DNA of 24,002 nucleotides from a virus: the UHGV virus genome UHGV-0067928, one strand, 5' to 3'. Below the pieces are notes generated by a model that ran no database searches, had not been told where the DNA came from, and saw nothing but the letters and a program-made list of their open reading frames with translations. Position 1 is the first letter of the stretch; every line of letters begins with the position of its first letter. This document shows positions 1 through 24,002 of the stretch, piece by piece. Made by a program: the position numbers and the translations under genes.

Positions 1-13
1 TGACGGGTAAAAA

Positions 14-3943: not shown

Positions 3944-3966
3944 GCACTACACTTTTTGTGTAGTGC
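3944..3966. promoter_or_regulatory. Perfect 9-bp inverted repeat in the tailspike leader
   Basis: GCACTACAC-TTTTT-GTGTAGTGC. No flanking U-run on either strand. Shares the CTACAC/GTGTAG half-site with the arc/mnt operator cluster. Confidence 0.3.
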
Positions 3967-5185: not shown

Positions 5186-5199
5186 TTCCACCTCACTTG

Positions 5200-5283: not shown

Positions 5284-5294
5284 CAGGAGGAGAA

Positions 5295-5546: not shown

Positions 5547-5559
5547 AGGTGGGTTTAGT
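5538..5559 (-). terminator. Intrinsic terminator of the two-gene operon (convergent with the mnt 3' end)
   Basis: Minus strand: ACCCACC-TTCA-GGTGGGT followed by TTTTTGT, immediately after the TAA of the 149-aa gene. The stem overlaps the last codons of mnt. Confidence 0.6.
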
Positions 5560-6579: not shown

Positions 6580-6646
6580 ACAAACCTCCTTCTTATCGGA
6601 GATTATCAATAGCTATGTATCCATTGAATACACGCTATGCGCAGTA

Positions 6647-6675
6647 ATTCTACGTCACGTGATATCATTATGCAA
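6647..6675 (-). promoter_or_regulatory. Putative promoter of the two-gene operon
   Basis: Minus strand: -35 TTGCAT, 17-bp spacer, -10 TAGAAT. The spacer contains the overlapping palindromes TCACGTGA and TGATATCA. Confidence 0.45.
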
Positions 6676-6750
6676 CCACCGTTCTATCACCAGTAGATGA
6701 TGCCTCTCCATACATCATCTGGTATCCTGCTCAAAACTAAGGAGGTTGGT

Positions 6751-7101
6751 GTGAATGCTCAGTCTGTCATCATGGTTTTCCTTGGGCTGATTGTCGCAAA
6801 ACTATATCCAGACTGGTGGAAAGGGGCATTAGCTACTGTCGCCATCTATTTGCTTTTATCCATCGTTAAGCGATCACTCGCTGAGACCGTAAATCAAGCA
6901 AAACGTTTCTCATTTAAGAGTTTAATAAACTATGTTACTGGGCTTATTTTTTGCCTTTCAATTCTGATCGCTTCGGCTTTTTTGCCCGTATCAATAGCTA
7001 ATTTTTTTGGCGCACCATATGAGGTAGGTTATCTATTCTCTGTTTCCTGTCTTGCCATTGCTCTTCTTTACCTTTGGACGAGATCAAAGAATAAAAATTA
7101 G
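6751..7101 (+). CDS. Small integral membrane protein (about 4 TM helices); candidate superinfection-exclusion or immunity protein
   Basis: The GTG at 6751 is preceded by AAGGAGG; the upstream ATGs at 6697/6700 lack an RBS. Four hydrophobic segments. Transcribed divergently from the two-gene operon, opposite to the late genes. Confidence 0.55.
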   Translation: MNAQSVIMVFLGLIVAKLYPDWWKGALATVAIYLLLSIVKRSLAETVNQAKRFSFKSLINYVTGLIFCLSILIASAFLPVSIANFFGAPYEVGYLFSVSCLAIALLYLWTRSKNKN

Positions 7102-7130
7102 CCATCCGTGGCTGCCAGTTATTGAGTTTC
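7100..7130 (-). terminator. Weak putative terminator after gp16
   Basis: Minus strand: AGCCA-CGGA-TGGCT followed by AATTTTTATT. Short stem. Confidence 0.3.
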
Positions 7131-9134
7131 TTTTTGTGATGCCTGTGCGACTCTGGTGAGCGATTGTGTGACCGTACTGATCGCTCTGTCATATGCTGTG
7201 CTACCTTTTGGCGTATTTGCCAGACGTAACAAGGCATTTCGTATAACAGGGCTTTCGTATGCCTTCGCTGCTCCTCCTACGACACCAGCAGCAGGAACAA
7301 CAAACGCAGCCGTTTTTAGCATCCCCGCTAATACTGCTGCGTTTATGATGCCACCACCAACTAACAATCCATAAAGCTGCTGACCATTTAAGTTTTGAAC
7401 GTTCGCTTTTGCCGCGTGTCTTGTATCGTTGAGGTATTTAATAACGCCGTCCAGTTCCTTTCCATGTACGCCTTTAAAGAAAGTTGCTGATTGCTTCCTG
7501 TTCCGGTGTAACGCATTAATAAACTTTTCAACACTAATATTTCCAGACGGATCAGTCGCCTTATCTACAGCATTCTGAACTATGGCTGCTCGTGCGTTTT
7601 GCCTACCATTGTCATCCAGAAGCCTGTAAAGCTGAGAACGTTCTGATGGGTTTTGGCTAAAAACGAGTTTTGTTACATCCTCAGGTGTAGCCTTGCCGCT
7701 GGCTATTGCCTTTTGAACGCGCGTTCTTCCCATCATGTCATTGAATCTAGCCCATGAGCGATCAACCCTAGACATATTGGCAGCTTCTTCTGAGCCTAGT
7801 TTTTGGGATACTGCTTTTTTCATATCCGCTGTATATGCCTTGTAGACAATATCGCTGGCTTTCTGGAGCGTATCTTTATCAACAGTGTCAGATGACGCCA
7901 TAAATCGCTTTCGAAGATCGGTTCTGTTTTCCCTCGCCAGACGCAGGTCATTTGGTCCGCTGGTGATATCGTCTTTAAATTGCTGCAAGACTTTTACCGC
8001 GGCTCTATCCTGAGATTTGCCCGGGCGGCTTAACACGGCAATCTGATTGTCGATAGCTTTTACCGTGTTTGAGAGATCGACAGGGGTATCCCCCATAGCG
8101 TCAATTATGCGGTTATATCGCTTTCCTGCTGCCTCAATGAATTTTTGCTGCCCTTTAGTCGCAGACTCATAAAGCTGTTTATCTGAAATTCCCCCCAGAC
8201 CATCGCTAAATGTTCTGACTAAATTTTCTCGTGCTTGTTGTTGATTCAGTCGGTTCTTACCGGTTCCAAAAAAAGGAACTCTTTCGCCTAATGTTTGGGC
8301 CTGCCCCTGCATAAAGGTTTTATCTTTCAGCGTGTCACTGGTCATTAACGGCAGGTTTCTTTCCGACGCAAAATCGACAGCAGCCTTTGCTTCCGGTGAC
8401 ATCTCACCGCGAACAGCCCTGGAAACCGCACTAACTGTATTTTCCAGCCCCTTGCCAACACCACCAATGCCAGCAGAAATTACCGTTTGTGCAGGATCAA
8501 TATCTTCTCCTCCAGCAAGACTGGTGCCACCCTGTAGTGCTAAATCTGTAGCAGCTGATTTCCCTATGGCACCAAGCACCGTTCCAGCCCTGCCCGCTGG
8601 TGTGAACGCTAACGCATTAGCAAGAAACGAAGTCAGGTCTTGCGGTGATAAACCTGGCTTGTTCAGGGCATAATCACCGGATGGCAGGGAAACGATAGTG
8701 TTACCCTTCTCATCCTGCCTTAATTTCGCCCCCATACTCTGAAGAATCTTTTCCTGAGACGCCTCGGAGCCGAAAAGTTGAGACCATCCAGCCTTCAGGG
8801 CATCCATGCTTAGTGAGTTCAACTCAGGGGCAGCCCCAACATTTTGCAGTCTCTCCATTTCTGGTGTCATTCGGCTTTCACCGGTAACGGCATCGCGCAT
8901 TGCAGCACCTAAAACAGCCCCTTGCTCAGCAGAGCGATCTAGTCCTTCCTTCTGCTGAGTGGCAAGCTGTGTATATCCTGATGCAAGTGAGTTGTCTGCT
9001 GGCGATTGCTGAACACCTTGTTGTGTTGGCGCTGACTGACCAGCAAAATACTCATCAATGGCGGTGCCAATATCTTCCGTGCTCGTACCATCAGGGAAGG
9101 TAAATGTCTTACCGTTTGCAGTTACTTTCATCAT
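7119..9134 (-). CDS. Ejection (E) protein, P22 gp16-like
   Basis: 671-aa ORF in the gp16 position, last gene of the 14-7-20-16 block. Start ATG overlaps the gp20 stop (ATGA). Confidence 0.7.
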
Positions 9135-10582
9135 TCCACCGTAAATTGAATGCCTGATTTTGACGTGTAGCTACCTCCTGCTGATTGCTGAGTAGCTGGC
9201 TGTTGCCTTGATGATTTCTTCCCGCCATTACCAACATTAACGTTATATTGCTGGTTGTAATTGTCGGTATATTGCTGAATGTCGCGCATTGATTGTTGCA
9301 GTGCTTCAGGGCTTGAGAAATCAGGCTTTGGCATACCCTGAAAATACCTATTGGCCTCTGCTTCGGTGTTGATGCCAGATGCCCCCATATCTCGGGCTGC
9401 TGCAATCCCCTGATTTTGCATTTTGCCCATGATTCGCTGTGCAGCGTTGTATAGCGTCCTCTCCTCAACACCAGATGCCCGGCTACGAATATCTGCACCA
9501 AGAGCAAAAGAACCTGAAGAACCTGTAATACCTGTCATGAAGCCAAGATCGTCAATTGATGCGCCAGAAATTGCATCAAGATCTTTCTTCATTTCGTAAT
9601 TCTGTGCATTAGCTGCCGATGTAGCCGGAGCAGCAATAGAACTTGCGGGGACGCGAATCATATTGCCCTCGTTGTCTATTCCTTCGTAGAACGCATTAGC
9701 ACCAGCGCCGTGAAGCTTCCTACCAACCGTTACCGTTCTACCATCTGCCAGTTGCACAACATTCTCCCCGCCAGCAGCAGGACGGCCTCGAACACGAAGA
9801 TATGTCTTTTGTTGCTCTGGAGACAGGCTGTTGAAATATTGATATTCTTTAACAGATGCAGGAACAGCACCTCCAGCAGTGCGCAGAGAGTTTTCACGGC
9901 TAACAGCAATGCTTTGCGCCTGTAAACCTTCCCCAGCTTTATTGCTGCGAATCGTCTCTGCCAACTCGCCGCGCTCAATATCCCGACCTTCCATTCGATC
10001 TTTGATATCGAAGTACTTCTCATGACCGAGAGAAAACAGCGCCAGATTACCTGCGAAATGCTGGAAGCCCTGCGGGTCATTAACCTGCATTTCAGCAATA
10101 GTTTCTGGAGGGATACCTAAACGACGCATCTCCTGCTCATTATCCATCATGAACCTGCCAAATGCGCCCGGACCAAGCGATGAGGCTACCTGTGCTTTGA
10201 GCGCCAGATTGCCATAATCATCCCTTTGAGCATCATCGACATAACTCATCCCTTTACGGACTTCCTCAAACTCTTCTGGGAATGCTGTAATAAGATTACG
10301 CATCTGCTCCCTGTCGCCGGACGCATAAGCATCTGCATAACCTTTCTGGAATGCCGCTTTACGCTCCTGCTGTTGCTGCTGCTTATAAATATCAGCAACT
10401 CCAGCCAGACCTCGAAGACCTGTCAGACCAACGTTATTTGCACCTGAGCGAGCCAGTTCATTGTTTTCGCGGATCAGACCAAGCGTTGCGTTAATGTCGC
10501 TTGCCTTTGGCGCATTCTCATTTTGCGCACCAATTCCAGCCAGAAAACCACCAGAATTAATACCCTGTTGCCACGTAGCCAT
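9131..10582 (-). CDS. Ejection protein, P22 gp20-like
   Basis: 483 aa against about 471 for P22 gp20; Gly/Ala/Gln-rich; positional synteny. Confidence 0.7.
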
Positions 10583-10592
10583 TGATTACCCC

Positions 10593-11288
10593 TTAATAAA
10601 GCAGTGAACTAAGCAGACCGATACCAGCACCGATACCAGCACCCCACGGAGTTGATGAACCAATTAATTTCGCAAGTCCAGCCCCAGCAATAGCACCAGA
10701 CGCACCCCCGCCAATAGCAGATTGCATTGCTGATGGTCTGTTGGCATTTGCCGCTGCAAGAGCCGCACTTTGCTGCGAAATCTGACTCATGTTGTTGGCA
10801 TATGTCTGCCCGGCGTTTGCCTGACCTTGCAGTGCGCCAAGACCAATATTTGCCAGATTCTGGTAGTTGTTCATCTGACCAGATAGCCATTGCTGACCAA
10901 GCGTTGGTGCGATTGTTGCTAACTGATTACTGGTTGCGGTGGAACCTAATCCACCTGTTGCTTCCGCTGCCGCCAGACTCTGATAGCGAGCCTGACCAGC
11001 AAGATCTTTGTACTGCTGAGAGTTGTAATACTGGTTAAGCGCCTGACCTTGCCCCTCCAGAGACGATAAGTTCTCGAGGCTGCCGACATACTTCTCAGCC
11101 AGAGGAGTAAACGGCTTCAGGTTATTCATGATGGTGTTGAACTGCTGATTTTGCAGGTCTGCGGCATACTTCTGAGCTTCTGCTGCATACTTTGCGCTTT
11201 TATCAGAACTGCCACCTTTCCCGCCTTTTTCAGGGCAATAAGGTTCCTCGCCGCGCAGTTTTCTGCCCAGCTTAAATGCATATAACAT
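10593..11288 (-). CDS. Ejection protein, P22 gp7-like
   Basis: 231 aa against about 229 for P22 gp7; Q/A/G-rich with a hydrophobic C-terminus; synteny. Confidence 0.65.
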   Translation of the reverse strand: MLYAFKLGRKLRGEEPYCPEKGGKGGSSDKSAKYAAEAQKYAADLQNQQFNTIMNNLKPFTPLAEKYVGSLENLSSLEGQGQALNQYYNSQQYKDLAGQARYQSLAAAEATGGLGSTATSNQLATIAPTLGQQWLSGQMNNYQNLANIGLGALQGQANAGQTYANNMSQISQQSAALAAANANRPSAMQSAIGGGASGAIAGAGLAKLIGSSTPWGAGIGAGIGLLSSLLY

Positions 11289-11290
11289 GG

Positions 11291-11746
11291 CTATCTCCCG
11301 TGATTCAGGAAGTCGATTAGTTCTTCGCGTGTGGCGCTGTAAAAAGTCACGTCATCCACGCCTTTAAAGTATTTCTTGATGGTTCCTACACGCTTAAGGC
11401 CAATCATTGCGCAGTACATCTGACCGTGGCGGAATTTGCGTGCAGCGAACGATGTGACGCACTGAACGGTGGTGTTAGTCAGAATGTATCGCCAGAACGC
11501 CAGCCCGATTTCCTTGCTGAAGCCGCGAATCTCTGGCAGGTACATGGCGTGGCAATCGAATGTCAGCGGCTGAATCTCCTGATAGTAAACAATGCCGCCG
11601 AACTGCCCGTGCACGTTCACCTCAAAGTAACGGCATTCAGGTTTGTAGTCGTATCCATCGCCGTTGTTGCTCCCGGCGATAATGTCAGGGTGATTTCCTA
11701 CTGCTTCGATCAGGTCGATGTTTCGCGTTGGTTTGAATGTAATCAT
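11291..11746 (-). CDS. P22 gp14-like protein
   Basis: 151-aa ORF directly downstream of gp26, with start overlapping the gp26 stop (ATGA). Assigned by position only. Confidence 0.55.
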   Translation of the reverse strand: MITFKPTRNIDLIEAVGNHPDIIAGSNNGDGYDYKPECRYFEVNVHGQFGGIVYYQEIQPLTFDCHAMYLPEIRGFSKEIGLAFWRYILTNTTVQCVTSFAARKFRHGQMYCAMIGLKRVGTIKKYFKGVDDVTFYSATREELIDFLNHGR

Positions 11747-12447
11747 CAGTCAATCAGCCCATGTAATCTAAGTGCTGTTTCAAGCGCCAGAATACGCTGC
11801 CGCGCCTGCTGCAAACCTGTAGCGAGAGCCGCGACTTCGGATTGCGTGTACGTAGTGCCGACCGTGTATGACTGGTTAGCGTTGAATGAGCCAAGAAGAG
11901 GTGTACCTGTGGCTGCAGTCCATCCGGTCTGCCTTGCTCCAACGACCTGAATTCCATCAACTGAATATGATGTTTTTACATCCAGCGGTGACGCAAGAGA
12001 CTGCGATTCGGTTACGGTTTTCGATACGTAATCACTCTTAATGTCAGATACATCGCTTTCTACGCCATCCAGTCTTTGGTCAACAGTGACCAGATGCGCC
12101 TGAATATCGATAACCTCATCCAGCAAGTAATCAACATCGCTACGCAGTACGACTATCTTCCCTTCGGCGGTTGTTAACCTGACCTCAAGGAGATTTATCG
12201 CTTTTGTGTTTGCGGTGATTCTTGCATCGTGGTCAGCCAGTTCGACATCCTGTTCATCGTTTTTCACCTGAGCATCGTAAGCGCCCTGACCAGCCTGATT
12301 TGCCTTCCCGGCAATTGCGCCGACATCAGCCCCCTGATTAATGACATACAGCAGGTAAGACTGGCTGAAGATATTGCGTGGAAGGATTGATGTATCGAGT
12401 CGTGTAGCCTGAATTGTTACCGGCTCATTGAGATTCGAATCAGCCAT
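11746..12447 (-). CDS. Tail needle protein, P22 gp26-like
   Basis: [25 protein letters not shown]...[30 protein letters not shown]...[13 protein letters not shown] follows P22 gp26 along its length (233 aa). Start chosen at the ATG at 12447, which has GGAGG 7 nt upstream. Confidence 0.85.
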
Positions 12448-12985
12448 TAACATGCCTCCACGATTTACCAGACTGGATATTGTGAATCACCGTCTGACTG
12501 ACACAGTATTTTTTAGCAAGCTCTCTTTGATTAACTCCCTTTGATTTCTTTATTTCTATTACTTGCTCATATGAGAGCTTTGAAATTGGATTATTTTCTC
12601 CTTTTAAAGCCGGAAACTTCACCCTGCCTTGAGATGAGCAATGCTTCATATTCTCCTTTTGAGTACACCACTCTAAATTAGAAGCATTATTATTTTTTCG
12701 GTTGTTATCTATGTGATTTATGAACGGCTTGCCTTCTGGATTGGGGACGAAAGCAAGAGCGACAAGCCTATGCACAAGCCATTTTACTTTAACTCCATCA
12801 ACACTAAGTGGCAAATATAGATAACCTTTATTATTCTCGTGTTGTTTTAGCCACCGACCCTTTCTGAGTTGCGTGCTGCCATGAGCAGCCTTAACAACAC
12901 GTGAGTGAGAATATACTCGCCCATCCTCTGTTACGGCATATAAACCTTCATATCCAGGAATATCTTTTGCGTTTTCACTCAACAT
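12440..12985 (-). CDS. HNH homing endonuclease (NUMOD4-like N-terminus plus HNH motif)
   Basis: N-terminus [18 protein letters not shown] and HNH core [23 protein letters not shown]; SD AAAGGAG. Lies between gp10 and gp26, which are adjacent in P22. 3' end overlaps the gp26 start. Confidence 0.8.
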
Positions 12986-13005
12986 ATCTACTCCTTTAGT
13001 TTCGA
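12845..13005. repeat. Direct repeat copy A (5' end and leader of HNH gene)
   Basis: About 160 bp that are near-identical to 14815-14985, including an identical ~47-nt run CCTTTCTGAGTTGCGTGCTGCCATGAGCAGCCTTAACAACACGTGAG. Confidence 0.7.
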
Positions 13006-13006
13006 T

Positions 13007-14425
13007 TTATGTTACACGAATAGAAAGGCCTGATAATGTAACAGGACCTTTTGCAATAACTCTGAATTTAAATCCAATGAGGCGTCTAACTCGACCAACT
13101 TTTCGCCATAAAACGCGATTGTCATATACAAATGGTTTTTGTAATACGACCATTTGCTCACGACCGTAATTAATTCCATCTGTAGTTGCTGATATAAATA
13201 TTCTATCTATTCTATCACACACGCCGCCAGATGTTTCTAATTCAAGGTCATTTATTAAAACGTTATCTGCCTTTATTAAAGGAGAATATAAAATATGTTC
13301 CTGTTGCTTGTCGTACTGGCTGCTGATGTCGAATTGCAATTTCCCGGTCACGGACTCCAGCTTATCGCCGCACGTTATCTGATTGCCTTCGTAAATGAAG
13401 TCGATAGCGCGGTACACATCGTCATACAGGCCTGTTTTCAACACACACCATTGCGGACCATTGGCGCTTGAAGATGCGTCGTACACCAGAACATGGCGCG
13501 GAAGATGGATAATCAGCAGCTCATGCGCATCAAATCGCAGCGATTCCATCACGCCATCAGCCAGTTCATCAGCAGTGTAGGAGCGGAGGATTTTCTCAAT
13601 GCTCGCGCTGGCGATTGGTGACACCTGACCTGAGCCGATGATGTATACAGACGGCGCACCTGTTGCCGGATTGCTGATGAACGCATACGAATCAGCGAAT
13701 GGAGTTTTGCAATAAGTCCCAGCAATACCTTTCTGCACCATCAGCGATGGCTGTGCGACATACAAAGCGGCACCAACAGTGGTTGCACCAGTCAGGGAGA
13801 AATATTCAATAGTCGATGAACCAAAGCAGACGATGAAGTCTCGCCATGTCCCGATACCGATGATGCCGTCCGGCTGAGACTCGGCACGATATTGTGCACT
13901 GTAGCGGTCAGGATGCGATTCGTCTTCAAGGTCAGTGATAAACCATGAATCCGTGCCGTCTTTTGACCACGCATAACGCCCACGTAAGCGTGTAATGTCG
14001 CGGACTGAACCTAACTCATACTGAGTGAATCCGCTGTCTGTAGGCCAGTTTGAGACGGTTTTAACCGTGCCATCATAACGATACTCGACCAGTTGACCAT
14101 TAACGCCTACAGCCTGAGATGTCCGACCATGAGCCATTGATACTCGACCACTTCCGGCAACATCACCGACCTCACTTTCGCCCTTATACAGTTTGCCACC
14201 ACACACGCGATAAACAGCATTCTGCGCCATGTTGTACTCGACGCCGCGAGATACACCGTTCACATCAGAGCGTTTGGCAATGCCCGGGAATGAGCGAAGA
14301 TATCCCGATGAATTCAACACCTCCTTGGGCGTAGCTAAAAGATTGACTGGAAGTTGGTCTATATAATCAGCATTAACCGCACTTTTCCCCAATCCCTTCA
14401 TTAGTGGTAGTTGTTGTATTGCCAT
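13007..14425 (-). CDS. Tail hub protein, P22 gp10-like
   Basis: 472 aa, the same length as P22 gp10; N-terminus MAIQQLPLMKGLGK...ADYID..LPVNLLATPKEVLNSSGYLRSFPGIAKR matches the gp10 family. Confidence 0.85.
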   Translation of the reverse strand: MAIQQLPLMKGLGKSAVNADYIDQLPVNLLATPKEVLNSSGYLRSFPGIAKRSDVNGVSRGVEYNMAQNAVYRVCGGKLYKGESEVGDVAGSGRVSMAHGRTSQAVGVNGQLVEYRYDGTVKTVSNWPTDSGFTQYELGSVRDITRLRGRYAWSKDGTDSWFITDLEDESHPDRYSAQYRAESQPDGIIGIGTWRDFIVCFGSSTIEYFSLTGATTVGAALYVAQPSLMVQKGIAGTYCKTPFADSYAFISNPATGAPSVYIIGSGQVSPIASASIEKILRSYTADELADGVMESLRFDAHELLIIHLPRHVLVYDASSSANGPQWCVLKTGLYDDVYRAIDFIYEGNQITCGDKLESVTGKLQFDISSQYDKQQEHILYSPLIKADNVLINDLELETSGGVCDRIDRIFISATTDGINYGREQMVVLQKPFVYDNRVLWRKVGRVRRLIGFKFRVIAKGPVTLSGLSIRVT

Positions 14426-14957
14426 TGGAATCAGCCTTTATATGAACCCAGTTAGCATCACGCTTTAGCCTACTTGCCCAGGTCTTAGATATTCCGTACT
14501 TAGCCGCAATTACTGACAAGCTTTCTTTTGATGACTTGATTGCAAGAACATCGTCATCACTCAACTTGTGCTTTGGGTGCTTGGTTCCGAAAAACTTGAT
14601 TGGTTTCTTTAATCCGGTGGCGTATGCATGTTTGATGTTTTCGCTTTGAGTGCACCACTCAAGATTATTGACGTTATTATTGAGTGGATTGCCATCAATA
14701 TGATTTACCTGAGGCTTGTTTTCAGGATTTGGCAGGAATGTCATTGCAACGATTCGATGGGCAAAAGTCCATTTTGCTCCGATATTATAAAGCACCCTTC
14801 CCTGATTTATTTTAGGCTTTAACCAGCGCCCCTTTCTGAGTTGCGTGCTGCCATGAGCAGCCTTAACAACACGTGAGCGAGAATACACCCTGCCATCTTC
14901 TGTTACGGCATAAACACCTTCAAATCCAGGTATATCTTTAGCATTCTCAGAAAGCAT
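14373..14957 (-). CDS. HNH homing endonuclease (paralog of 12440-12985)
   Basis: First ~47 residues almost identical to the other HNH gene; HNH core NHIDGNPLNNNVNNLEWCTQSEN; SD AAGGAG. Inserted between gp4 and gp10, with its 3' end overlapping the gp10 start by 53 nt. Confidence 0.8.
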   Translation of the reverse strand: MLSENAKDIPGFEGVYAVTEDGRVYSRSRVVKAAHGSTQLRKGRWLKPKINQGRVLYNIGAKWTFAHRIVAMTFLPNPENKPQVNHIDGNPLNNNVNNLEWCTQSENIKHAYATGLKKPIKFFGTKHPKHKLSDDDVLAIKSSKESLSVIAAKYGISKTWASRLKRDANWVHIKADSNGNTTTTTNEGIGEKCG

Positions 14958-14985
14958 ATCTACTCCTTAAAGTTTCGATTTTTCA
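14815..14985. repeat. Direct repeat copy B (5' end and leader of HNH gene)
   Basis: Partner of 12845-13005. Confidence 0.7.
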
Positions 14986-14993
14986 TGTACTTA

Positions 14994-15098
14994 TTATATC
15001 AAAATTGCCAGCATATTCACTGGCAGATAGTCGATATAGTCGGCGTTTCGAAAGTCTTTGCCGACACCTTTCATAAGCGGAAGTTGCTGAATAGGCAT
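14994..15098 (-). pseudogene. Relic 5' end of gp10 (34 codons) stranded upstream of the HNH insertion
   Basis: Translates to MPIQQLPLMKGVGKDFRNADYIDYLPVNMLAILI-stop, with its own SD AGGTGA, 8 nt after the gp4 stop. Homologous to the N-terminus of the intact gp10 at 14425. Confidence 0.6.
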
Positions 15099-15106
15099 TT
15101 ATTCAC

Positions 15107-15589
15107 CTATGCGTTTGGGATATCGCCATCAATCAGAGGGAGATCGCCTGGATAATATCGGTCAGATGTGAACACGTCATATTTATTACCCTGTCCTACA
15201 GGAAAATCTCCACGTCGTCGTATTGAAGGAACAACCAGAGTGTCGGTAATCAAGGCATCATATGAGCGTTGGGCGTTACTGAGAACTTGCTGAGTTGGTT
15301 CAAGGCTGTAATCAGATAGCATTCTCAGCAATAACTGATAGCCTACTGCGTGTTTGTATTTTCTTGGAAGACCTGACTCATCATCTGGTAATGGCTGATC
15401 ATCTCCAGTTGCGAAAGCGTAACCAATGTCGCCGGGGTTAATCATCCACTCGGACATCATATCTTCCAGATCATTTACACCATCTTCAATTGATTGCGGC
15501 TCAACATCAGTCAGCGATGCGTTAGAAGCAATAGCAAACTTACGAAGCGCAAAAAGGACGATCTCACCCTTTGTCAGTACTGTTGCCAT
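15107..15589 (-). CDS. Head completion / tail adaptor protein, P22 gp4-like
   Basis: ALRKFAIASNASLTDVEPQSIEDGVNDLEDMMSEW matches the P22 gp4 N-terminal pattern; 160 aa. Confidence 0.85.
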   Translation of the reverse strand: MATVLTKGEIVLFALRKFAIASNASLTDVEPQSIEDGVNDLEDMMSEWMINPGDIGYAFATGDDQPLPDDESGLPRKYKHAVGYQLLLRMLSDYSLEPTQQVLSNAQRSYDALITDTLVVPSIRRRGDFPVGQGNKYDVFTSDRYYPGDLPLIDGDIPNA

Positions 15590-15749
15590 TGTCTGCCGCC
15601 TTACGACCTCGCTTACTGGTCGGTTTCAATTCATCAACTGAGGCAACAAAGCCCAACTTTTCGAAAAACTTGAAGTCTTTTTCTGTGATAACGGCCTGTA
15701 CATGCCCGGATTCGTTATCTGCGGCAAGGAATACACTCATGCGATCCAT
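15564..15749 (-). CDS. Small hypothetical protein (61 aa) between coat and gp4
   Basis: SD AAGGA 6 nt upstream of the ATG, directly after the coat terminator. Overlaps the gp4 start by 26 nt. No homology recognised. Confidence 0.4.
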   Translation of the reverse strand: MDRMSVFLAADNESGHVQAVITEKDFKFFEKLGFVASVDELKPTSKRGRKAADNGNSTDKG

Positions 15750-15760
15750 ATTGTTTCCTT

Positions 15761-15787
15761 AAAACATAAAAGGGGCGTAAGCCCCTT
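15761..15787 (-). terminator. Intrinsic terminator immediately downstream of the coat gene
   Basis: Minus strand: AAGGGGC-TTAC-GCCCCTT followed by TTTATGTTTT. Confidence 0.6.
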
Positions 15788-15791
15788 GTTA

Positions 15792-17063
15792 TTACGGATT
15801 ACCGAAGAACTGACCGCCCATGTGAGGGTTAAAGCACACATATGCAGGCAGTAAGTCGAAGCGCATTTTTTGCACGTTGGCATCGCCATCTGCGTATTTA
15901 TGTACGCGGATGGAGAAACCTTCATATGTTGCAACAGCAGAATCAATACTGTGCAGTTTCGGCAGTGGGATAGAGCCAAGTCCACAGAAGAACTTGTTAT
16001 AGAACAGGTTTGGCTTCATTGTCTGGCTAGCAGTGCCTACTACAGATACGGCATCGCCTGCCGCTACCTGACGACTTACAGAGTTGTACTGCGGGTTTGT
16101 AGTGTCATAAATCGGAACACCAGAAAGCGTAACCGTCACATCGCCACTGCTGTCTGAATCAGCATCAGCAGTAACCGTTGCAGTGAAGCTAATTGGTGTG
16201 GCTCCGTTATACAACGCCTGTTTGGTCTGCTGTTGCAGCCAGTAGGTATTGGTGAATTTAACCTGATCACCAGCTTTCAGGAAAGCTGTAACGCTGGTTG
16301 TCGCTCCGGTCAATGTTACAGTGAACTGGTATGAGTCTTTAACTGCGTTATAGGTAACAGTTGGCTGTGTTTTGACTGTCAGTGTTCCGCCAAATGCCCC
16401 CTGCGTACGAGAGGCAAGCCCATTAGACATCAGTGCGCGAATGCCGCCAAAATTGGTTGGGATCTGCGCATTCTCCCATGCAGTACGAACCAATTGATCT
16501 GAAGCGTGCAAACCAGTCTGCGCATCAGCAAGTCGCTGTGCAGACCATGGATCCATTACAGCATAGTTTTCACCTTCATTAACGCCGAGGTCTTTCAGGA
16601 AAGATGCCGTCTGCGCAACATCAGACCATTTGGTGATTGGAGTATTTGGGCTACCAAGTGACAACGCACCGTTATTCATCATGAAGTGAGCAAGCTCTGT
16701 TTCAAGGTCGGTAACGATTCGCTGGCGAACAGGCGCGAGAATTTCTTCCAGTTGGTTAAGCTTGATCGCTTCCTCCAGTTGCTGATATTCAACAGCAACA
16801 GTGATGTAGTTACCTACACGCCCCGTAGCTTTACCTGAGATCAGGTTGTTTTTATTTTGCCCTGAAATATCACCAGTGGGAGTACGGAGGGATGAGAATT
16901 GATGCGGACGTTTAAAGCTAACGCTATCGCCAGTGCTGGAGTTGATTTCACCTGCCAGCAACTGACGGTCTACGGTTTTCGCCAGAACTAAATCTGACAT
17001 AAAACCCGGAAGGAATTTTTTCAGAACGATTTGACTGACGTTACTATCGAGATTGTTATGCAT
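15792..17063 (-). CDS. Major capsid (coat) protein
   Basis: 423-aa ORF immediately downstream of scaffold and upstream of gp4, as in P22-like head modules, followed by a strong terminator. Assigned by synteny and size. Confidence 0.7.
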   Translation of the reverse strand: MHNNLDSNVSQIVLKKFLPGFMSDLVLAKTVDRQLLAGEINSSTGDSVSFKRPHQFSSLRTPTGDISGQNKNNLISGKATGRVGNYITVAVEYQQLEEAIKLNQLEEILAPVRQRIVTDLETELAHFMMNNGALSLGSPNTPITKWSDVAQTASFLKDLGVNEGENYAVMDPWSAQRLADAQTGLHASDQLVRTAWENAQIPTNFGGIRALMSNGLASRTQGAFGGTLTVKTQPTVTYNAVKDSYQFTVTLTGATTSVTAFLKAGDQVKFTNTYWLQQQTKQALYNGATPISFTATVTADADSDSSGDVTVTLSGVPIYDTTNPQYNSVSRQVAAGDAVSVVGTASQTMKPNLFYNKFFCGLGSIPLPKLHSIDSAVATYEGFSIRVHKYADGDANVQKMRFDLLPAYVCFNPHMGGQFFGNP

Positions 17064-17074
17064 TTATCTTTTCC

Positions 17075-17959
17075 TTATTCGATTTTTGCGCCGGGGCATA
17101 ATTTGTTGAATTCGTCTTGTTTCGCATCAGCACCGCCACCACGTACTTCCGGCTCTGGCTTGATGGCTTTCTTTGGTTTTGGAGCAAGGCTTACCTGTTT
17201 GCTAATCTGCCCCAAGAGGAATGCTGCGCGAATTGGATCTGTCTCAGCGGCTACACGCTGGCGTAATTGCTGGCTCTTACCTAAGCCATAGGCGAGTAGT
17301 TCAGAGCCTTCGTCTGCACAGTGAATGATGATTTCCTGCTGAATTGGTGGTAGCTCACTAAGAACAATGGCTTCCATTTCCTGATAATCTTTCACAGGAA
17401 GTTTGGCTGCCCGTTGTTTATGCGCTTCTACCCTTTGCTGGAAACGCTGCTGGTATTCCTGTTGCTGACGTAGTTTTTGTTGCTGCTGCTGTTCGACACG
17501 GCCTTTTTTCTCATGCCAATCAGTCAATGCCTGTTCAAACGCCTGTTCGTCATAATCACACGACTCAAGAGTCGGTTTTGGTGGAATAGCGTCTGGTTGT
17601 GGTTGCTGATGTTCCGCAGGCTTGGCTAATGCTTCCTCAAGCTGGCGTCGCAACTCACGGTTTTCTTTCTGTGTTTCTTTGAAGCCTTTGCGAAGATCTT
17701 TCACCCATTGCGGTGCAGGTTGCCCGTCAATGTGATCATCATCGTCAGCGTTAAGCTGAATTTCTTCATCACCAATACGCAAGGCGTAATCTTCTGGTGT
17801 CTCTTCGGTTTTTTCAGGATCAGTTGCCATCTCTTTTCCGTTGTCATCCTGGCTTTCATTCTCAGGCTGTGACTCTGTTTGGATGATGGTTTCTTCTGCA
17901 TTTTCCTGTGTTTCAGACAGGTCAATAACCTGACCGTCGATGATCAGTTCGTTTTCCAT
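17075..17959 (-). CDS. Scaffolding protein
   Basis: 294 aa, acidic N-terminus, Q/E-rich coiled-coil centre, basic C-terminus; sits between portal and coat; SD AGGAG. Confidence 0.65.
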   Translation of the reverse strand: MENELIIDGQVIDLSETQENAEETIIQTESQPENESQDDNGKEMATDPEKTEETPEDYALRIGDEEIQLNADDDDHIDGQPAPQWVKDLRKGFKETQKENRELRRQLEEALAKPAEHQQPQPDAIPPKPTLESCDYDEQAFEQALTDWHEKKGRVEQQQQQKLRQQQEYQQRFQQRVEAHKQRAAKLPVKDYQEMEAIVLSELPPIQQEIIIHCADEGSELLAYGLGKSQQLRQRVAAETDPIRAAFLLGQISKQVSLAPKPKKAIKPEPEVRGGGADAKQDEFNKLCPGAKIE

Positions 17960-17972
17960 TGATTACTCCTGG

Positions 17973-19688
17973 TTAACTCGGCATTAAGTCTGCCGGTGAC
18001 TGTGGTGGTGACTGGAATTGCTGTTGTTGTGACTCGGCGACATCTTTCAGAAGGCGTATTGCCTCCATCACTGCTTTGTCATCGATGTTTCTGGCTTGAG
18101 CCAGTTTATAGACAGTGTTTGCCTGACTCTCCATCGCATCCTGCTGGGCAGTAAATGCTTTGATTTGAGTTTGAGCAGTTTCGTTAGTTGCTTTTTGCGC
18201 TTCTGCCTGCGCTGCTACCATTTGCGCCTGAGCGAGAACCATTTCAGGATTTGGCTGGCTTTGTGCTGCCATTTGCGCCTGTTGAACAATCTGCTGCTCT
18301 TTCTCATTGCGTGGTTTTGCAATACCAGATATCAGCAGTTGGTTTCGGTTGTACTCTTTGAAGTCATCAAGGCCTTCGCCATCGATATTGTCCAGAATAA
18401 TACCCTGAATTGCCGGGCGCATTGGGTCTGTTGGAAGCATAGAGCTAAGGACATTTGTCAGTACAGAAACCGTTGCATCACGTCGTGCTGTGTAGCTTGG
18501 TCCAACATCAACCGTCACATCGTATCGACCGACAGAAAGGTCATTTAACGCAACAACAGCCCCTGTTTGCCTGTCAACAACCTGTGCGCTCAGGACAGCG
18601 ATATCATCACTTCCATCTTCGTTAACGATGCGCACTTCACGCTCTGAACCGTACACTTCACGCGCCATTGACAGCCATACTTCACCAGCGCGTTTAAGAC
18701 TTTTCGCCATATTGTCCAGATAGATAAACGAAGCCATATCTGCTCTGTTCATCAAGTTGTTAACCGTTTCCTGAGCAATATTACTTGGCATCTGCTGCAT
18801 GGCCTGACTGCCGCCTGTAACCTCCTGAATATCAGCACTGGTTTGCTGTAGTAATGCAGCCAATGCCTGATTCATAACCGCAGGCTGTGTATATCCTGCC
18901 GGGGTAGCTCCAGCGATAATGTTGCCAGATTTATCTCTCACTTCGCGCAACGGCAAGAACGCTGGGCGTTTCTTGTTGCGAGCCTCCCAGTGCTTCTCAA
19001 GTCCACGAATTTGCTCCATGCCAACTATAGGGATCTGACCGGGGTCTTGCGCTGCAGTATCAGCCAGCATTGAAACCTGAAGGTTGTACAAACGCTGTGG
19101 ATCCATTGCTTTTGCAATGTGCCCTTCGACACGCTCAATGTCATCAATGAACCAGCGTTTTCCATAAACCGGGATGAGGGGGATATGCTCACCAGGAATA
19201 CGTCGAGGTTTCTCAAGGAAACCATCACCATCCACTACGGATACATACACACGACGGCGCTTCACTGAGCGCCTTGCCACTTCCTGAAATCCAGCTATTG
19301 CCAGTTCATCTTCAATATCTTCAACCTGATCACTGTCGTATGTTGCAATCTCTCCAGTGATTGAATGTCGATAACTGATGACGTCAACAGACTCTTTACG
19401 AACTTCGTAATACTTCGCTATGTAAATAACATCTGCATCAAACCAGTCATATTCCCAACTGGTCATAGACGTTACATCCAGAGAAGCAGGAGGTTTCTTT
19501 CCGTATTCAGCCTCATATTTTTCAGGTGACAACGAATACATGCAGAACGCCCACAACGCGTCAGATTTGTCGTACTTCTTAGCGTCAGGGTCAAACCACA
19601 CAGAGCGCGACGGGTCGTATATTGGTTCAATAGCAATACGCTGACGATCGTCCATGGGGTCGTATTCATTGACCAGCATCGACGTCAA
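17973..19688 (-). pseudogene. Portal protein (P22 gp1-like), 5'-truncated
   Basis: Aligns to P22 portal from about residue 150 onward (e.g. GFQEVARRSVKRRRVYVSVV versus the P22 ...IKRRRVYKSII region) through the Q-rich C-terminal barrel. An in-frame stop 12 codons upstream and no ATG; the ORF-track start is a TTG. Confidence 0.8.
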
Positions 19689-19713
19689 ACGGAAGCAACC
19701 GAAACCACCAGCA

Positions 19714-19923
19714 ACCGAGGTTCATGTCGGAATTAATGGCGTGATGCAAATGCTTGGCGGCATTGGCGACAGCAAACAACAAGCAGCCAGCAGGCAATCA
19801 CAGAAGCCACAGCAGCAATCATCACCAGCACAACACAACGAACCTCCGATGGATTTTGACGACGATATCCCCTTTGCACCAGTAACTCTCCCTTTCCCTC
19901 GTCACGCTATTCACGCAATTTAA
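19714..19923 (+). pseudogene. ssb: ssb 3' fragment (single-stranded DNA-binding protein C-terminal tail)
   Basis: TEVHVGINGVMQMLGG...NEPPMDFDDDIPF matches the SSB C-terminal region and acidic tip. The OB-fold N-domain is absent, and 15 extra codons follow DDDIPF before the stop. Confidence 0.75.
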
Positions 19924-19931
19924 GGACTTAC

Positions 19932-20480
19932 ATGAATCACTTGATGGTTGACCTTGAAACAATGGGCAACGGGCCATACGCGCCAGTTATTTCTATTGGG
20001 GCGGTATTCTTTGACCCGAATACCGGAGAAACAGGAGAAGAGTTCTCGGTAAATATCTCGCTTGAGTCATCAATGCGATATCTGGCGCGTCCTGACGCTT
20101 CAACGATTTTATGGTGGCTGGAACAGAGTGAAGAAGCCAGAAAATCGCTAACCAGCAACACTCAGGAGCTTTCAACGGCTCTTTCATGGTTATCTGAATT
20201 CATCATAAAGAACGCCAACCACAAACTCGTTCAGGTTTGGGGGAATGGAGCATCATTTGACTGCGTTATTCTCCGCAACAGTTATTCGCTGACAGGGCAG
20301 CCAGTTCCGTGGCAGTGGTGGAATGACCGCGACGTAATAACAATCGTCGAACTTGGGAAGGTAATAGGATTCGATCCTAAGCGAGATATGCCATTCAAAG
20401 GAACTCGCCACAACGCGCTTGATGATGCCATCCACCAAGCCAAATACGTTTCAGCGATCTGGAAAAAGTTAGCTAAATAA
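19932..20480 (+). CDS. DEDD-type 3'-5' exonuclease (DnaQ/RNase T-like)
   Basis: N-terminal MVDLETMGN (Exo I D-x-E motif) and C-terminal H-x-A-x-x-D (HNALDDA); 182 aa; SD AAGGA. Confidence 0.7.
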   Translation: MNHLMVDLETMGNGPYAPVISIGAVFFDPNTGETGEEFSVNISLESSMRYLARPDASTILWWLEQSEEARKSLTSNTQELSTALSWLSEFIIKNANHKLVQVWGNGASFDCVILRNSYSLTGQPVPWQWWNDRDVITIVELGKVIGFDPKRDMPFKGTRHNALDDAIHQAKYVSAIWKKLAK

Positions 20481-20496
20481 TCAACAGGAGAAAACC

Positions 20497-20793
20497 ATGC
20501 CAGCGCCTCTATATGGTGCGGACGACCCGCGCCGCTGTTCCGGCAATTCCATATCGGAGGTGCTGGAAAATATCAAGAATAATCTCGACGCGTTTCTTTC
20601 TCTGCCACCAGAAACAAAAGAAGAACGGAAGTACCGACGCGATATACAACTCGCAGAAAAACAGGAAAAAGACCGAATAAACGAAACATCAATCCGACCA
20701 TTCCGCAAATCCACATATACCCACTTCCCTGAATATATCGACCCGCGCCTGCGTAATTACCGCTCACGCTATGGCGCTATCAGTAATGACTGA
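20497..20793 (+). CDS. Hypothetical protein (98 aa)
   Basis: SD AGGAG 6 nt upstream of the ATG; basic C-terminal half; no domain recognised. Confidence 0.5.
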
Positions 20794-20803
20794 GGAATTT
20801 ACC

Positions 20804-20968
20804 ATGAGAGGACTTGCATACAATCCCGGCATTCTTCCGGCAGAAATGATTATTCGCCAACGCGTAAAGCCAATGCCATCGAGAGAGGAATTACTTAAGA
20901 GAAATTCTTTTCCATCAGTGAATCAAAACAAGTATCTGAATGCGATGTTGCGGAGTGGGAAGAAATGA
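20804..20968 (+). CDS. Hypothetical protein (54 aa)
   Basis: ATG at 20804 preceded by TGAGGAA; stop overlaps the next start (ATGA). Confidence 0.4.
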
Positions 20969-21555
20969 AACAAATGACACTAATTGAGATGGATGGATTT
21001 CTGAAAGGTAAATGCATTCCACGAGATTTAAAGGTTAACGAAACAAACGCTGAATATCTGGTGCGTAAATTTGCTGAAGCGGAGGCCAAGATTTCGGCTC
21101 TGTACGAAGACCACCAGAAAGCGATTGAGTCAATTAAGCAGGCTGATGCAGCTGTTAAGTTGGCACACGAGAAGTTTTCAGCGCTGGCTGCTGAGAATGC
21201 TGGGCTGAAGGCTGTGGAGTCCAACCTGGTGAGAAACATAATTAACGACCTTGGCGATACGGAATACCAATACGAAAAAGTCCAAACCCCAGCTACCGAC
21301 GCTTTCCTGGCTGAAGTACGTGCGGAAGCACGCAACGAGGGGATTAACTATACCGCCAGCCGTCTTGCTGCTGCGTTCAATCACGGATTTATCAATAAGT
21401 CTTTGCGTGAAGTTTTCGACGTTACACGCATGATTTTGTCAGCGAAAGAAGAGTTGGCTAATGAAGCGCATCCGATTGATGGCCTATCTGGTGAATATGC
21501 GGAGAAATCCCTTGAAGAATGGGCGGAACAGATTCGCAAAGGAGGCAACCAGTGA
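20965..21555 (+). CDS. Hypothetical coiled-coil protein (196 aa)
   Basis: Translationally coupled on both sides; Ala/Glu-rich heptad-like segments. Confidence 0.55.
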
Positions 21556-22349
21556 GCAAGATTGACTATCAGGCACTGCGTGACAAGGCAGAGAAAGCAA
21601 CGTGTGGGGTGTGGTCGCTCGAATATGGAGAGAGCCGATTTGATTGTGATGATGCGCTAATTCATCGTGAAATTGCTGGATATATTCCCATTTGCAGAAT
21701 TGAAGGAGCGCATCCAGAAAGCGGCTTCGATGAAGATTTCCAAATGGAACAGCAGGCCAATGCTGAATTCATCGCCGCAGCCAGTCCAGCTACCGTGCTG
21801 GCGCTACTTGATGAACTGGAAGCAGCAGAGAAGCGGATTGCTGAATTGGAGTCGCTGACGGCTCCACGGTTAACGCAGCAAGCGGTGCCGGATGAAATGC
21901 CGGAGCCAGATACCACGAGAATGTTCTTTACCGATGCAGTTGTGGCAATAGCTAAGGCTCAAGGCTGGAACGCATGCCGCGCCGCTATGCTTCATGGGGC
22001 CGAACCTGTAAGTGAACATGATGAGTTGCCGCTGGACTATCTTCAAGGACACAAAGACGGCCTGGAGTGGGCTGCACAATTGGCAGAAGCCAATCATCCG
22101 CAAACAGGTGACTGGTTGTACGACGACCCAATCGATCTTGCCAGGGCGATTCGTAAAGGTCCTGATATGCCTACTGTTCAGGCTGGCAACTCTCCGGTAA
22201 CTCCGGATGGTTGGGTTATGGTGCCGAAGGAGCCAACTCAGGCCATGATTAAAGCGTGGCTATCAGAGATTGCTAACTTTCGCGGTCATGCTGCTGGTTA
22301 CAGGGCTGCTATAGAAGCAGCACCACAACTGGAGGTTAACCGTGGCTAA
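21552..22349 (+). CDS. Hypothetical early-region protein (about 265 aa)
   Basis: GTG at 21552 overlapping the upstream stop (GTGA), with AAAGGAGG 7 nt upstream. Coiled-coil centre. No confident family. Confidence 0.55.
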   Translation: MSKIDYQALRDKAEKATCGVWSLEYGESRFDCDDALIHREIAGYIPICRIEGAHPESGFDEDFQMEQQANAEFIAAASPATVLALLDELEAAEKRIAELESLTAPRLTQQAVPDEMPEPDTTRMFFTDAVVAIAKAQGWNACRAAMLHGAEPVSEHDELPLDYLQGHKDGLEWAAQLAEANHPQTGDWLYDDPIDLARAIRKGPDMPTVQAGNSPVTPDGWVMVPKEPTQAMIKAWLSEIANFRGHAAGYRAAIEAAPQLEVNRG

Positions 22350-22626
22350 CCTGCAACTTGCCGTCAAAGGTGAATACTTCGATTCCATGATTCGCGGAGA
22401 TAAAACGGAAGAGTATCGCCTATGTAATGACTACTGGAATAAGCGAATTATGTTCCGCGAGTATGACCGCCTGATTATCACAAAGGGATATCCGAAGCGC
22501 GAAGATTCCAGCCGTAGAATTGACGTCCCGTACGACGGATATGAAATCAAGACAATCACACATCCGCACTTCGGTGATAAACCGGTAAAGGTATTCGCGA
22601 TAAAGGTGAATATCGGCAATGAATAA
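22342..22626 (+). CDS. ASCH-domain protein (putative)
   Basis: Contains GDKTEEYR, which matches the GxKxxExR signature of ASCH/PUA-like domains; 94 aa; GTG start with GGAGG upstream. Confidence 0.5.
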   Translation: MANLQLAVKGEYFDSMIRGDKTEEYRLCNDYWNKRIMFREYDRLIITKGYPKREDSSRRIDVPYDGYEIKTITHPHFGDKPVKVFAIKVNIGNE

Positions 22627-22668
22627 CAATCCTCGCACTCGCGGGGATTTCTTTTATATGGGGATAAT

Positions 22669-23469
22669 ATGGCCATCCACTTTCACGGCAGCCCAATATG
22701 GGGGGATGAGCATGCCCCCACAGATATGCTGATTAAAGCCCTTTACCGTGATGGTGGGGCTTTTGTTTCATTCGCCAGACCAGAGCAGATGAAAAAGATT
22801 GCCATGTTCCCTTGTGATATACGCCTTGATAACGGCGCTTTTAGCGACTGGATGAAAGCATTAAAGAAAGGCACTCCGGTAGACTGGAGTAAGAGACGAG
22901 CAAAATTCTACGATTTTGTTGGGAAGTGGTTCAGCAGAATTGAATGGTTTCTTATACCTGACGTTATCGAAGGGACAGAGGCAGAAAACGACGAGCAGAT
23001 TGAGTTGGTTCCTGATTGGCTAAAATCAAAAGCGGTTCCTGTCTGGCATACCGACGAATCAATTGAACGTCTTTTACGCCTTTCTGGCAAATTTGAATGG
23101 GTGGCGATTGGATGCTGCGGCCCACACAGGCACATACGCTCTAAATGGTGGGAACAGAGAATGGATGAAGTTTTCACTGAGCTTTATATCAATCGTAATT
23201 TGAAAGTGAAAATTCATGGTCTTCGAATGCTCGACGTGAGAGTTCTTGGTATGTATCCGTTCGCCAGTGCGGATTCTACTAATGTTGCTGTTAACGTACC
23301 GAAGACAGAGAAGCGATTTCCTGAGATTATCGACAAACTGGCACGTACAGCTGTACTTCGCGCTGCTATTGAAAAGGTGCACCCGCCATCGATATCAGCA
23401 TGGGTAGACAGAAAGATGAGAGAGCCGGCGCAAGCCGGTTTTTTATTTGAATTCACCGACGCCGCTTAA
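22669..23469 (+). CDS. Hypothetical protein (266 aa), function unknown
   Basis: Long clean ORF with a mixed alpha/beta character; no motif recognised. Flanked by 13-bp direct repeats GGATTTCTTTTAT. Confidence 0.55.
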   Translation: MAIHFHGSPIWGDEHAPTDMLIKALYRDGGAFVSFARPEQMKKIAMFPCDIRLDNGAFSDWMKALKKGTPVDWSKRRAKFYDFVGKWFSRIEWFLIPDVIEGTEAENDEQIELVPDWLKSKAVPVWHTDESIERLLRLSGKFEWVAIGCCGPHRHIRSKWWEQRMDEVFTELYINRNLKVKIHGLRMLDVRVLGMYPFASADSTNVAVNVPKTEKRFPEIIDKLARTAVLRAAIEKVHPPSISAWVDRKMREPAQAGFLFEFTDAA

Positions 23470-23526
23470 TGCGGATTTCTTTTATCTGAACTCGCTACGG
23501 CGGGTTTTGCTTTATGGAGATGATAA

Positions 23527-23694
23527 ATGCACTTCCGAGTCACAGGTGAATGGAATGGAGAGCCATTCAACAGAGTTATCGAAGCAGAGGACATCAATGA
23601 CTGCTATAACCACTGGATGATATGGGCGCAGATAGCAAATGCAGACATAACCAATATTCGAATTGAAGAACTGAAAGAACACCAAACCGCCTGA
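23527..23694 (+). CDS. Small hypothetical protein (55 aa), below the ORF-track size cutoff
   Basis: ATG at 23527 with GGAGA 6 nt upstream; its stop is embedded in the following terminator. Confidence 0.35.
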   Translation: MHFRVTGEWNGEPFNRVIEAEDINDCYNHWMIWAQIANADITNIRIEELKEHQTA

Positions 23695-23751: not shown

Positions 23752-23952
23752 ATGCAACACGAACTACAGCCTGATTCACTGGTTGATTTGAAATTCATCA
23801 TGGCTGATACTGGCTTTGGTAAAACCTTCATCTATGACCGGATTAAGTCCGGAGACCTGCCTAAAGCCAAAGTTATCCACGGGCGAGCAAGATGGTTATA
23901 TCGTGACCATTGTGAATTCAAAAATAAGCTCTTAAGCCGCGCCAATGGGTAA
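23752..23952 (+). CDS. xis: Excisionase / AlpA-family DNA-binding protein
   Basis: 66 aa with the pattern of AlpA/Xis-type winged-helix proteins (FGKTFIYDRIKSGDLPKAKVIHGRARW). These are normally encoded just upstream of P4-type integrase genes. Confidence 0.75.
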   Translation: MQHELQPDSLVDLKFIMADTGFGKTFIYDRIKSGDLPKAKVIHGRARWLYRDHCEFKNKLLSRANG

Positions 23953-24002
23953 AATAGCGGGTAAAATATTTCTCACATCTAAAAAACACCATTCTAATCA
24001 AC

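Follow-up and report, generated by a model that had tools for sequence, protein, structure and literature searches.

A truncated portal gene abutting an ssb fragment marks a probable ~16 kb deletion in a P22-like prophage at argW of human-gut Escherichia coli

The DNA analysed here, UHGV virus genome UHGV-0067928 (24,002 nt, one strand, hereafter "the window"), carries the virion gene set of a P22-type phage in canonical order from portal to gp16, together with a tailspike that has a head-binding domain. An integrase gene lies at one end and an excisionase gene at the other, and the structural genes meet a group of early-left genes at a point where a portal gene and an ssb gene are both incomplete. 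The features of the window are as follows.

1–49, plus strand: inner part of the attL P' arm, with GGGTAAAA / TTTTACCC motifs upstream of int.
50–1207, plus strand: IntS-type tyrosine integrase, 385 aa, intact (Pfam Arm-DNA-bind_3, Phage_int_M and Phage_integrase).
1405–3879, minus strand: tailspike, 824 aa, with a P22-type head-binding domain (Pfam Head_binding and Pect-lyase).
4058–5546, both strands: immI-like region (Pfam P22_AR_N/C and Arc).
4058–4981, minus strand: antirepressor Ant, 99% identical over its full length to the homologue in prophage L028.
5045–5245, minus strand: Arc (Pfam).
5253–5546, plus strand: Mnt/Arc-like gene (Pfam).
7119–17959, minus strand: late structural genes, full length (Pfam, and tblastn against intact phages and prophages).
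17973–19711, minus strand: 5'-truncated portal gene, with its start at ATG 19679 (568 aa) or TTG 19688 (571 aa).
19654–19923, plus strand: chimeric ORF of 89 aa, comprising 19 codons antisense to portal in frame with the ssb tail.
19694–19702 and 19710–19718, plus strand: 9-nt direct repeat AGCAACCGA, the second copy of which spans the junction.
19711–19712: deletion junction, an apparent blunt join.
19712–19923, plus strand: 3' fragment of a phage ssb gene (212 nt, the last 70 codons and the stop).
19932–20793, plus strand: early-left genes, intact (whole Pfam profiles).
19932–20480, plus strand: 3'-5' exonuclease, Rv2179c-like, 100% identical to that of intact prophage L009.
20497–20793, plus strand: Abc2 anti-RecBCD protein (Anti-RecBCD_p2).
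20786–23694, plus strand: early-left accessory ORFs (DUF2737, a 196-aa ORF, an Ead/Ea22-like ORF, and ORFs of 94, 266 and 55 aa).
23752–23952, plus strand: excisionase, a TorI-type recombination directionality factor of 66 aa, intact.
23953–24002, plus strand: inner part of the attR P arm, with GGGTAAAAT repeats.

Apart from the two incomplete genes and the chimeric ORF, the coding content of the window is well preserved. None of the 29 other ORFs contains an internal stop, and 25 of them have homologues in intact phages or prophages by tblastn, most aligned over their full length; only partial matches were obtained for the tailspike and the Ead/Ea22 ORF, and four had no homologue in the small reference set. 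The integrase is identical (100%, full length) to that of the intact argW prophage L020, and the excisionase is identical (100%) to its homologue beside dsdC in the intact prophage L009; the homologue in L028 carries the annotation torI. The tailspike falls in the same 90% cluster as other 824-aa E. coli tailspikes. The late block comprises the ejection proteins gp16, gp20 and gp7, as well as gp14, the gp26 tail needle, gp10, gp4, a 61-aa ORF, coat and scaffold, with two HNH endonuclease ORFs lying among them. Pfam domains assigned across the virion set were P22_portal, Phage-scaffold, P22_CoatProtein, P22_Tail-4, Phage_stabilise, DUF2824, P22_gp7, Inj_translocase, Phage_P22_gp16 and Head_binding, and an NCBIfam search of the window ORFs assigned almost nothing further.

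The original prediction, made from the letters and ORF translations of this DNA, described an abrupt junction between a portal gene and the 3' end of ssb. This was borne out, and the junction proved sharper than described: base-by-base alignment to the parental sequences places the breakpoint between 19711 and 19712. When 18700–20700 was compared with phage records by megablast, the matches fell into two halves with no mixing. The portal side (18700–19711) is 98.5–99.3% identical to the portal genes of HF4s, Gally, Sf6, N7 and HK620, whilst the ssb side (19712–20700) is 94% identical to the ssb, exonuclease and abc2 genes of mEpX2/mEp235. Against Sf6, the alignment of 15700–19711 is gap-free at 99.2% identity. 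Portal homology, which had been placed from about 19688, therefore runs on to 19711, and the shortfall of the portal gene, which had been put at roughly 150 codons, is about 129 by comparison with Sf6, where the gene occupies 1835–3961 and homology begins at 2223 (a 5' loss of 388 nt, or 129 codons and 1 nt). Correspondingly, the Pfam P22_portal profile is matched at positions 120–594 of 594, with positions 1–119 absent. The predicted in-frame stop, 12 codons 5' of TTG 19688, was found at 19722–19724, within ssb-derived DNA.

On the other side of the junction, ssb has lost 295 nt (98 codons and 1 nt) of a 507-nt gene. The 212 nt that remain are 100% identical to ssb of the prophage in E. coli 702/18 and encode an acidic ...DDDIPF motif near the C-terminus. 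No Pfam SSB (OB-fold) domain was detected in this fragment, the only match being an NCBIfam one to the C-terminal part of the SSB profile. One relative has an HNH gene adjoining ssb. The 89-aa chimeric ORF that crosses the junction is probably fortuitous and unlikely to be expressed; an exact lookup of its product returned no record, and the JGI gene call at this position is a shorter ORF of 84 aa.

The size and content of the missing segment were read from full-length relatives, a comparison that the original prediction had proposed. Measured against the prophage of E. coli M18 (L029), the deletion is ~16.2 kb, a figure based on the correspondence of window 15007–19711 to L029 15496–20200 (99.2% identity) and of window 19813–21209 to L029 36516–37915. 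The intervening M18 sequence holds the 5' end of portal, the large and small terminases, lysis genes, a Q-type antiterminator, nin genes, replication genes, cII, cro, the repressor, N, a Rad52-type recombinase and the 5' end of ssb. The prophage of E. coli 702/18 and phage N7 have the same layout as M18, with the full gene set between both points, so that all three carry the undeleted complement. Terminase, lysis, Q, nin, replication, cro/c2 and N genes were found nowhere in the window. The claim that everything a P22-like genome normally carries between ssb and portal is missing thus stands, and all of these genes lie between the breakpoints in the intact relatives. The element also falls short of the gene set of a functional temperate phage, with neither a full portal nor terminases, lysis genes, replication genes, repressor/cro or a late activator.

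On long contigs that contain it, the element lies within E. coli chromosomal DNA, with argW on one side and dsdC on the other. On a 77 kb JGI contig the left flank reads fadJ/fadI, fadL, mlaA, yfdC and tRNA-Arg(CCU), followed by int; on the right, xis is followed by dsdC-dsdX-dsdA-emrY-emrK, and this flank matches E. coli chromosomes at 100% identity. A 16-nt core, CTGCAGGGGACACCAT, is present at both ends of the element, as expected of integration at this tRNA-Arg(CCU) gene. The left copy is the 3' end of argW, 127–112 nt to the left of window position 1, and the right copy lies 23 nt past position 24002 and is followed by dsdC. The core-to-core length is ~24.15 kb, and the window is almost exactly one whole prophage. 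From the core to the int ATG, the 179 nt show colinearity with phage N7 attP and with other argW prophages, and both att arms are equal in length to, and colinear with, those of the same references. The int gene adjoins attL and is transcribed away from it, and the excisionase lies at the far end beside attR, which is the layout of the KplE1 family. KplE1/CPS-53, a cryptic prophage of E. coli K-12, is bordered by the same core CTGCAGGGGACACCAT, and its IntS/TorI recombination module is common to HK620, Sf6 and CUS-3 (PMC2951348).

In phage N7 the core lies between xis and int. With attP in this position, the virion map is permuted on integration, which accounts for int lying beside the tailspike. 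A circular episome or virion-form genome, which that neighbourhood might also have indicated, is excluded by the host flanks and the duplicated att cores. Prior to the deletion, the prophage order would have been attL, int, tailspike, tail and head genes, portal, terminase, lysis, Q, nin, replication, cro, c2, N, erf, ssb, exo, abc2, xis and attR. The same attP position makes portal (minus strand) and ssb (plus strand) colinear within the prophage, and hence one deletion suffices for the join. A single event of ~16 kb joined portal codon 130 to ssb codon 99. The segment lost comprises the portal N-terminus and both terminase subunits, and with the latter the pac site, the lysis cassette and the late activator, the nin region and replication genes, and the immunity switch together with N and erf. 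The deletion is the only obvious lesion of the prophage, and it looks recent, since the remaining genes are intact and the copies differ by about 2 nt in 16 kb. Taken with the evidence on recurrence given below, the window is very probably a defective P22-like prophage (Lederbergvirus) of the Sf6/HK620 group, residing in argW of a human-gut E. coli and disabled by one deletion of ~16 kb.

The exact 60-nt junction was recovered from ENA ERZ27239406 (a 58 kb contig), ENA ERZ27239394, JGI 3300045988 and Logan ERR525745, in seven contigs altogether, and these copies are 99.99% identical to the window (2 mismatches in ~16 kb). An exact-protein lookup found the 568-aa truncated portal encoded on 19 contigs, and the same product is present in nr as DAW97032.1. 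A lookup of the tailspike added JGI 3300029079 (77 kb), JGI 3300029071 and the ENA/Logan assemblies of ERR525746, a human gut metagenome (PRJEB6456); in these contigs the reading covered the tailspike and the flanks. The assemblies may partly overlap in their reads, with ERR525745/6 represented in Logan, ENA and possibly JGI. Searched with a 400-nt query or an exact 24-mer, the junction was absent from 5,426 complete E. coli genomes, and it was likewise absent from 50,697 phage records (INPHARED) and from PLSDB plasmids. Exact-pattern scans of IMG/VR, GTDB species-representative genomes and JGI metagenome contigs gave no match, the JGI scan set presumably being without sample 3300045988, which does carry the junction. 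As the isolate and reference collections are without the junction, all sightings are of one clone, in metagenome-derived assemblies only.

The original prediction had proposed a large deletion or chimeric join that left a crippled element, and named three possibilities for its nature: a defective deletion derivative, a helper-dependent element or an assembly artefact. The crippled state is supported, with deletion favoured, and of the three possibilities the defective derivative held up whilst recurrence, host flanks and mid-codon breaks count against the other two. That an assembler misjoined two P22-like or lambdoid phage fragments is extremely improbable. Every copy of the junction is metagenome-assembled, and no isolate-based collection that was searched has it, as a misjoin would lead one to expect; however, the same junction was obtained in MEGAHIT k119 and k127 contigs (ENA), in JGI assemblies and in Logan, hence it is not confined to one assembly. 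The two parental sequences share 0 nt at the join and the longest common word nearby, at 7 nt, is much shorter than any assembly k; with no shared repeat of k or longer, a de Bruijn graph would have no path to a false join. Furthermore, contigs of 58–77 kb cross the element into normal E. coli neighbours, with attL and attR matching. A helper-dependent, satellite-like element, which would lean on a co-resident or superinfecting P22-like phage for its regulation and replication, for portal and terminase, and for lysis, is very unlikely. A headful helper could, in principle, package concatemers of a 24 kb genome, the head and tail genes are all intact save portal, and so are int, xis and both att arms; KplE1-type modules are moreover able to excise without the rest of the phage (PMC2951348). 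Yet both junction genes are broken mid-codon, which points to accident rather than design, and the element lacks a replication initiator, a small terminase and a pac region, as well as any repressor/derepression module or capsid-size redirection gene. No Pfam or NCBIfam domain for satellite functions (own replication, a master switch, packaging redirection) was found in the window, an absence that is not absolute given that several small ORFs are unannotated. The architecture occurs in one clone only, with no family of elements that has it, and the argW locus holds other remnants, of ~6.3 kb (L015–L017) and of 10.2 kb (KplE1), whose quite different sizes fit random decay.

It is also unlikely, though rather less so, that the join was made between two phage genomes, or within a replicating phage before integration, the product then having spread in a helper-assisted burst and integrated by its own Int. 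The left part of the window is nearest to Sf6/HK620-type phages and the right part to ssb-exo-abc2 modules that are found in siphoviruses such as mEpX2 too, and lambdoid phages are mosaic. However, the prophages of M18 (L029) and 702/18 (L022) and the argW prophage L009 combine both modules in the same order and orientation; as intact P22-like prophages already unite the two, no second genome is needed. The flanks and att sites are, in addition, those of a normal single integration. Whether the deletion came before or after integration, either timing fits the evidence.

The sequence at the breakpoint bears on how a deletion of this kind may have formed. Beyond 19711, four intact portal genes continue with TAGCAGCG, whereas in six intact ssb genes the base matching 19712 is preceded by CCGTTACA, so that there is 0 nt of microhomology at the join. 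The search for microhomology suggested in the original prediction was thus negative at the breakpoint itself, and no insertion sequence ends or hairpins were found there. The 7-nt word CAACCGA is common to both parental sequences. A cross-junction repeat of at least 9 nt, as formed by the two copies of AGCAACCGA, arose in 0.4% of 50,000 simulated random joins of an intact relative, a frequency computed post hoc. We tentatively infer that the deletion arose by illegitimate recombination without microhomology at the final join. Both ends may have paired transiently at the shared CAACCGA, after which ~2 nt would have been synthesised from template and the ends re-aligned, an event of the template-switch or synthesis-dependent end-joining class. 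The two HNH genes of the element, and the one beside ssb in a relative, prompted us to consider HNH cleavage as a possible source of the break.

As it now stands, the element is predicted from its gene content to be unable to be induced, to replicate, to lyse the cell or to package DNA, because the repressor switch, replication genes, late activator, terminases, full portal and lysis genes are gone. No sigma-70-like promoter was found in 19000–20600, and neither a new promoter nor a new terminator was found at the join. The deletion would have stripped both long operons, late and early-left, of their promoters, hence most of the remaining genes, including the truncated portal, the chimeric ORF and most structural genes, are probably silent. 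Excision is a different matter. The element is probably still excisable, as is KplE1 in K-12, given that intS has its own promoter in attL and that both att arms and xis are intact. In KplE1-type modules intS is served by its own promoter in attL, and KplE1 keeps every element required for site-specific recombination (PMC2951348). We also weighed a reading in which the element is not inert and, separately, the junction records synthesis-dependent, microhomology-primed end joining in E. coli, with an apparent blunt join and a templated repeat of 9 nt, and consider it improbable as a whole. In its first part, the element may be an excisable, domesticated remnant kept by the host for a purpose; its role could lie in structural, tailspike or immI (Ant) functions, or it could act as a recombination partner for, or be mobilised by, superinfecting P22-like phages.

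Among the closest known counterparts of this defective prophage is KplE1 (CPS-53), which shares with it the argW site, the CTGCAGGGGACACCAT core, IntS by attL and a TorI-type excisionase by attR, and which is likewise a defective P22-like remnant without an immunity region (PMC2951348). The two differ in extent. KplE1 is 10.2 kb long and nearly all its virion genes are gone, whereas the ~24.15 kb element described here has a late structural operon that is complete save for the portal N-terminus and the terminases; this fuller gene set places it at a much earlier stage of decay, reached by one deletion. Sf6, HK620, N7, HF4s and intact prophages such as that of M18 resemble it in portal/scaffold/coat DNA (98.5–99.3%), in gene order and in the int-attP-xis module, but are 38–40 kb long, with the genes from terminases to erf and with full-length portal and ssb. 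PICI, cfPICI and P4-like satellites also have an integrase, an excisionase and att sites and depend on another phage for their spread; unlike the present element, which has been seen in just one clone and ends in a pair of gene fragments, they form conserved families with their own replication/regulatory modules and packaging-hijack genes. The cryptic lambdoid prophages Rac, DLP12, Qin and e14 of E. coli were disabled by internal deletions and are kept in the chromosome. They belong to other phage lineages and sites and are older, most having many lesions, whereas one lesion is seen here. Such a state is an ordinary step in prophage decay, and the element adds one more example to a well-known kind.

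In nr, the exact proteins of the element carry the label "MAG TPA ... [Caudoviricetes sp.]" (DAW97032.1, DAW97038.1), hence the defective prophage circulates as a virus genome, and this suggests that a virus-mining pipeline cut it out of a bacterial contig. A defective prophage listed as a virus genome affects completeness estimates and host-range catalogues. There is nothing unexpected here for specialists, and the main value of the finding lies in curation, although the element also captures prophage decay at an early point, with a single clean lesion, at a locus that shows graded states. The argW series could be of use in studying how prophages are purged of their central lethal modules while int/xis/att persists. 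Its members are intact prophages of ~40 kb (L009 and L020, which represent the two ends), the 24 kb element described here, KplE1 at 10.2 kb and widespread int-to-xis remnants of ~6.3 kb, and at argW the central modules are repeatedly lost while the two ends are kept.

The tail-gene cluster contains two HNH endonuclease ORFs, one on either side of the gp10 gene, together with a detached copy of the gp10 start:

12440-12985, minus strand: HNH endonuclease ORF, 181 aa (Pfam NUMOD4 and HNH_3)
14373-14957, minus strand: HNH endonuclease ORF, 194 aa (Pfam NUMOD4 and HNH_3)
15007-15098: orphan copy of the gp10 start (approximately the first 30 codons), called as a 34-aa ORF and located upstream of the first HNH gene

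The 5′ regions of both HNH ORFs share a 164-nt repeat (12846-13008 and 14818-14981, 86.6% identity). In intact relatives such as phage N7 and the prophage of E. coli M18, gp4 is followed directly by gp10. The two HNH ORFs look like homing-endonuclease cassettes which have been inserted into the tail-gene cluster. An HNH endonuclease gene was also observed in the intact prophage of E. coli 702/18 (L022, locus positions 19242-19709), in this case immediately upstream of ssb and near the site equivalent to the window's right-hand breakpoint.

Three further ORFs were placed between gp16 and the immI region (mnt/arc/ant), one toxin-like and two lacking a family match:

5555-6004, minus strand: ORF resembling YafO-family toxins (Pfam YafO_toxin; its NCBIfam match, at E = 4e-22, falls under the curated cut-off)
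6013-6609, minus strand: ORF with no family match
6697-7101, plus strand: ORF with no family match

Homologues were found for none of the three among the reference phages compared. The YafO-like ORF and its two neighbours may represent a moron or toxin–antitoxin cargo.

At both ends of the window (1-49 and 23953-24002), within the att arms, GGGTAAAA motifs and the inverted form TTTTACCC recur; other argW prophages and the attP of phage N7 have conserved these motifs. The repeats are probably arm-type binding sites for IntS.

For the truncated portal and for the tailspike of the window, NCBI nr contains identical proteins (DAW97032.1 and DAW97038.1), with titles of the form “MAG TPA: portal protein / tail protein [Caudoviricetes sp.]”, hence the sequence, a defective E. 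coli prophage, seems to stand catalogued as an uncultivated virus genome.

Other prophage states were observed outside the window. The argW–dsdC site also holds widespread and far shorter remnants of approximately 6.3 kb, read here in E. coli draft and metagenome contigs (L015-L017, locus positions 10001-16287). These retain int, an acyltransferase, one minus-strand ORF of 429–462 aa, a few early-left ORFs and xis, and thus resemble the window's element in that the ends are kept and the centre is lost. The chromosome of E. coli GPEC79-13-647 (L028, NZ_CM142761.1; locus positions 6107-7714) carries a P22-like prophage in virion-type order: torI and intS are neighbours, with an attP core still intact between them (locus position 6381), hence this prophage is not integrated via that attP; its tailspike region is broken by an IS3 element.
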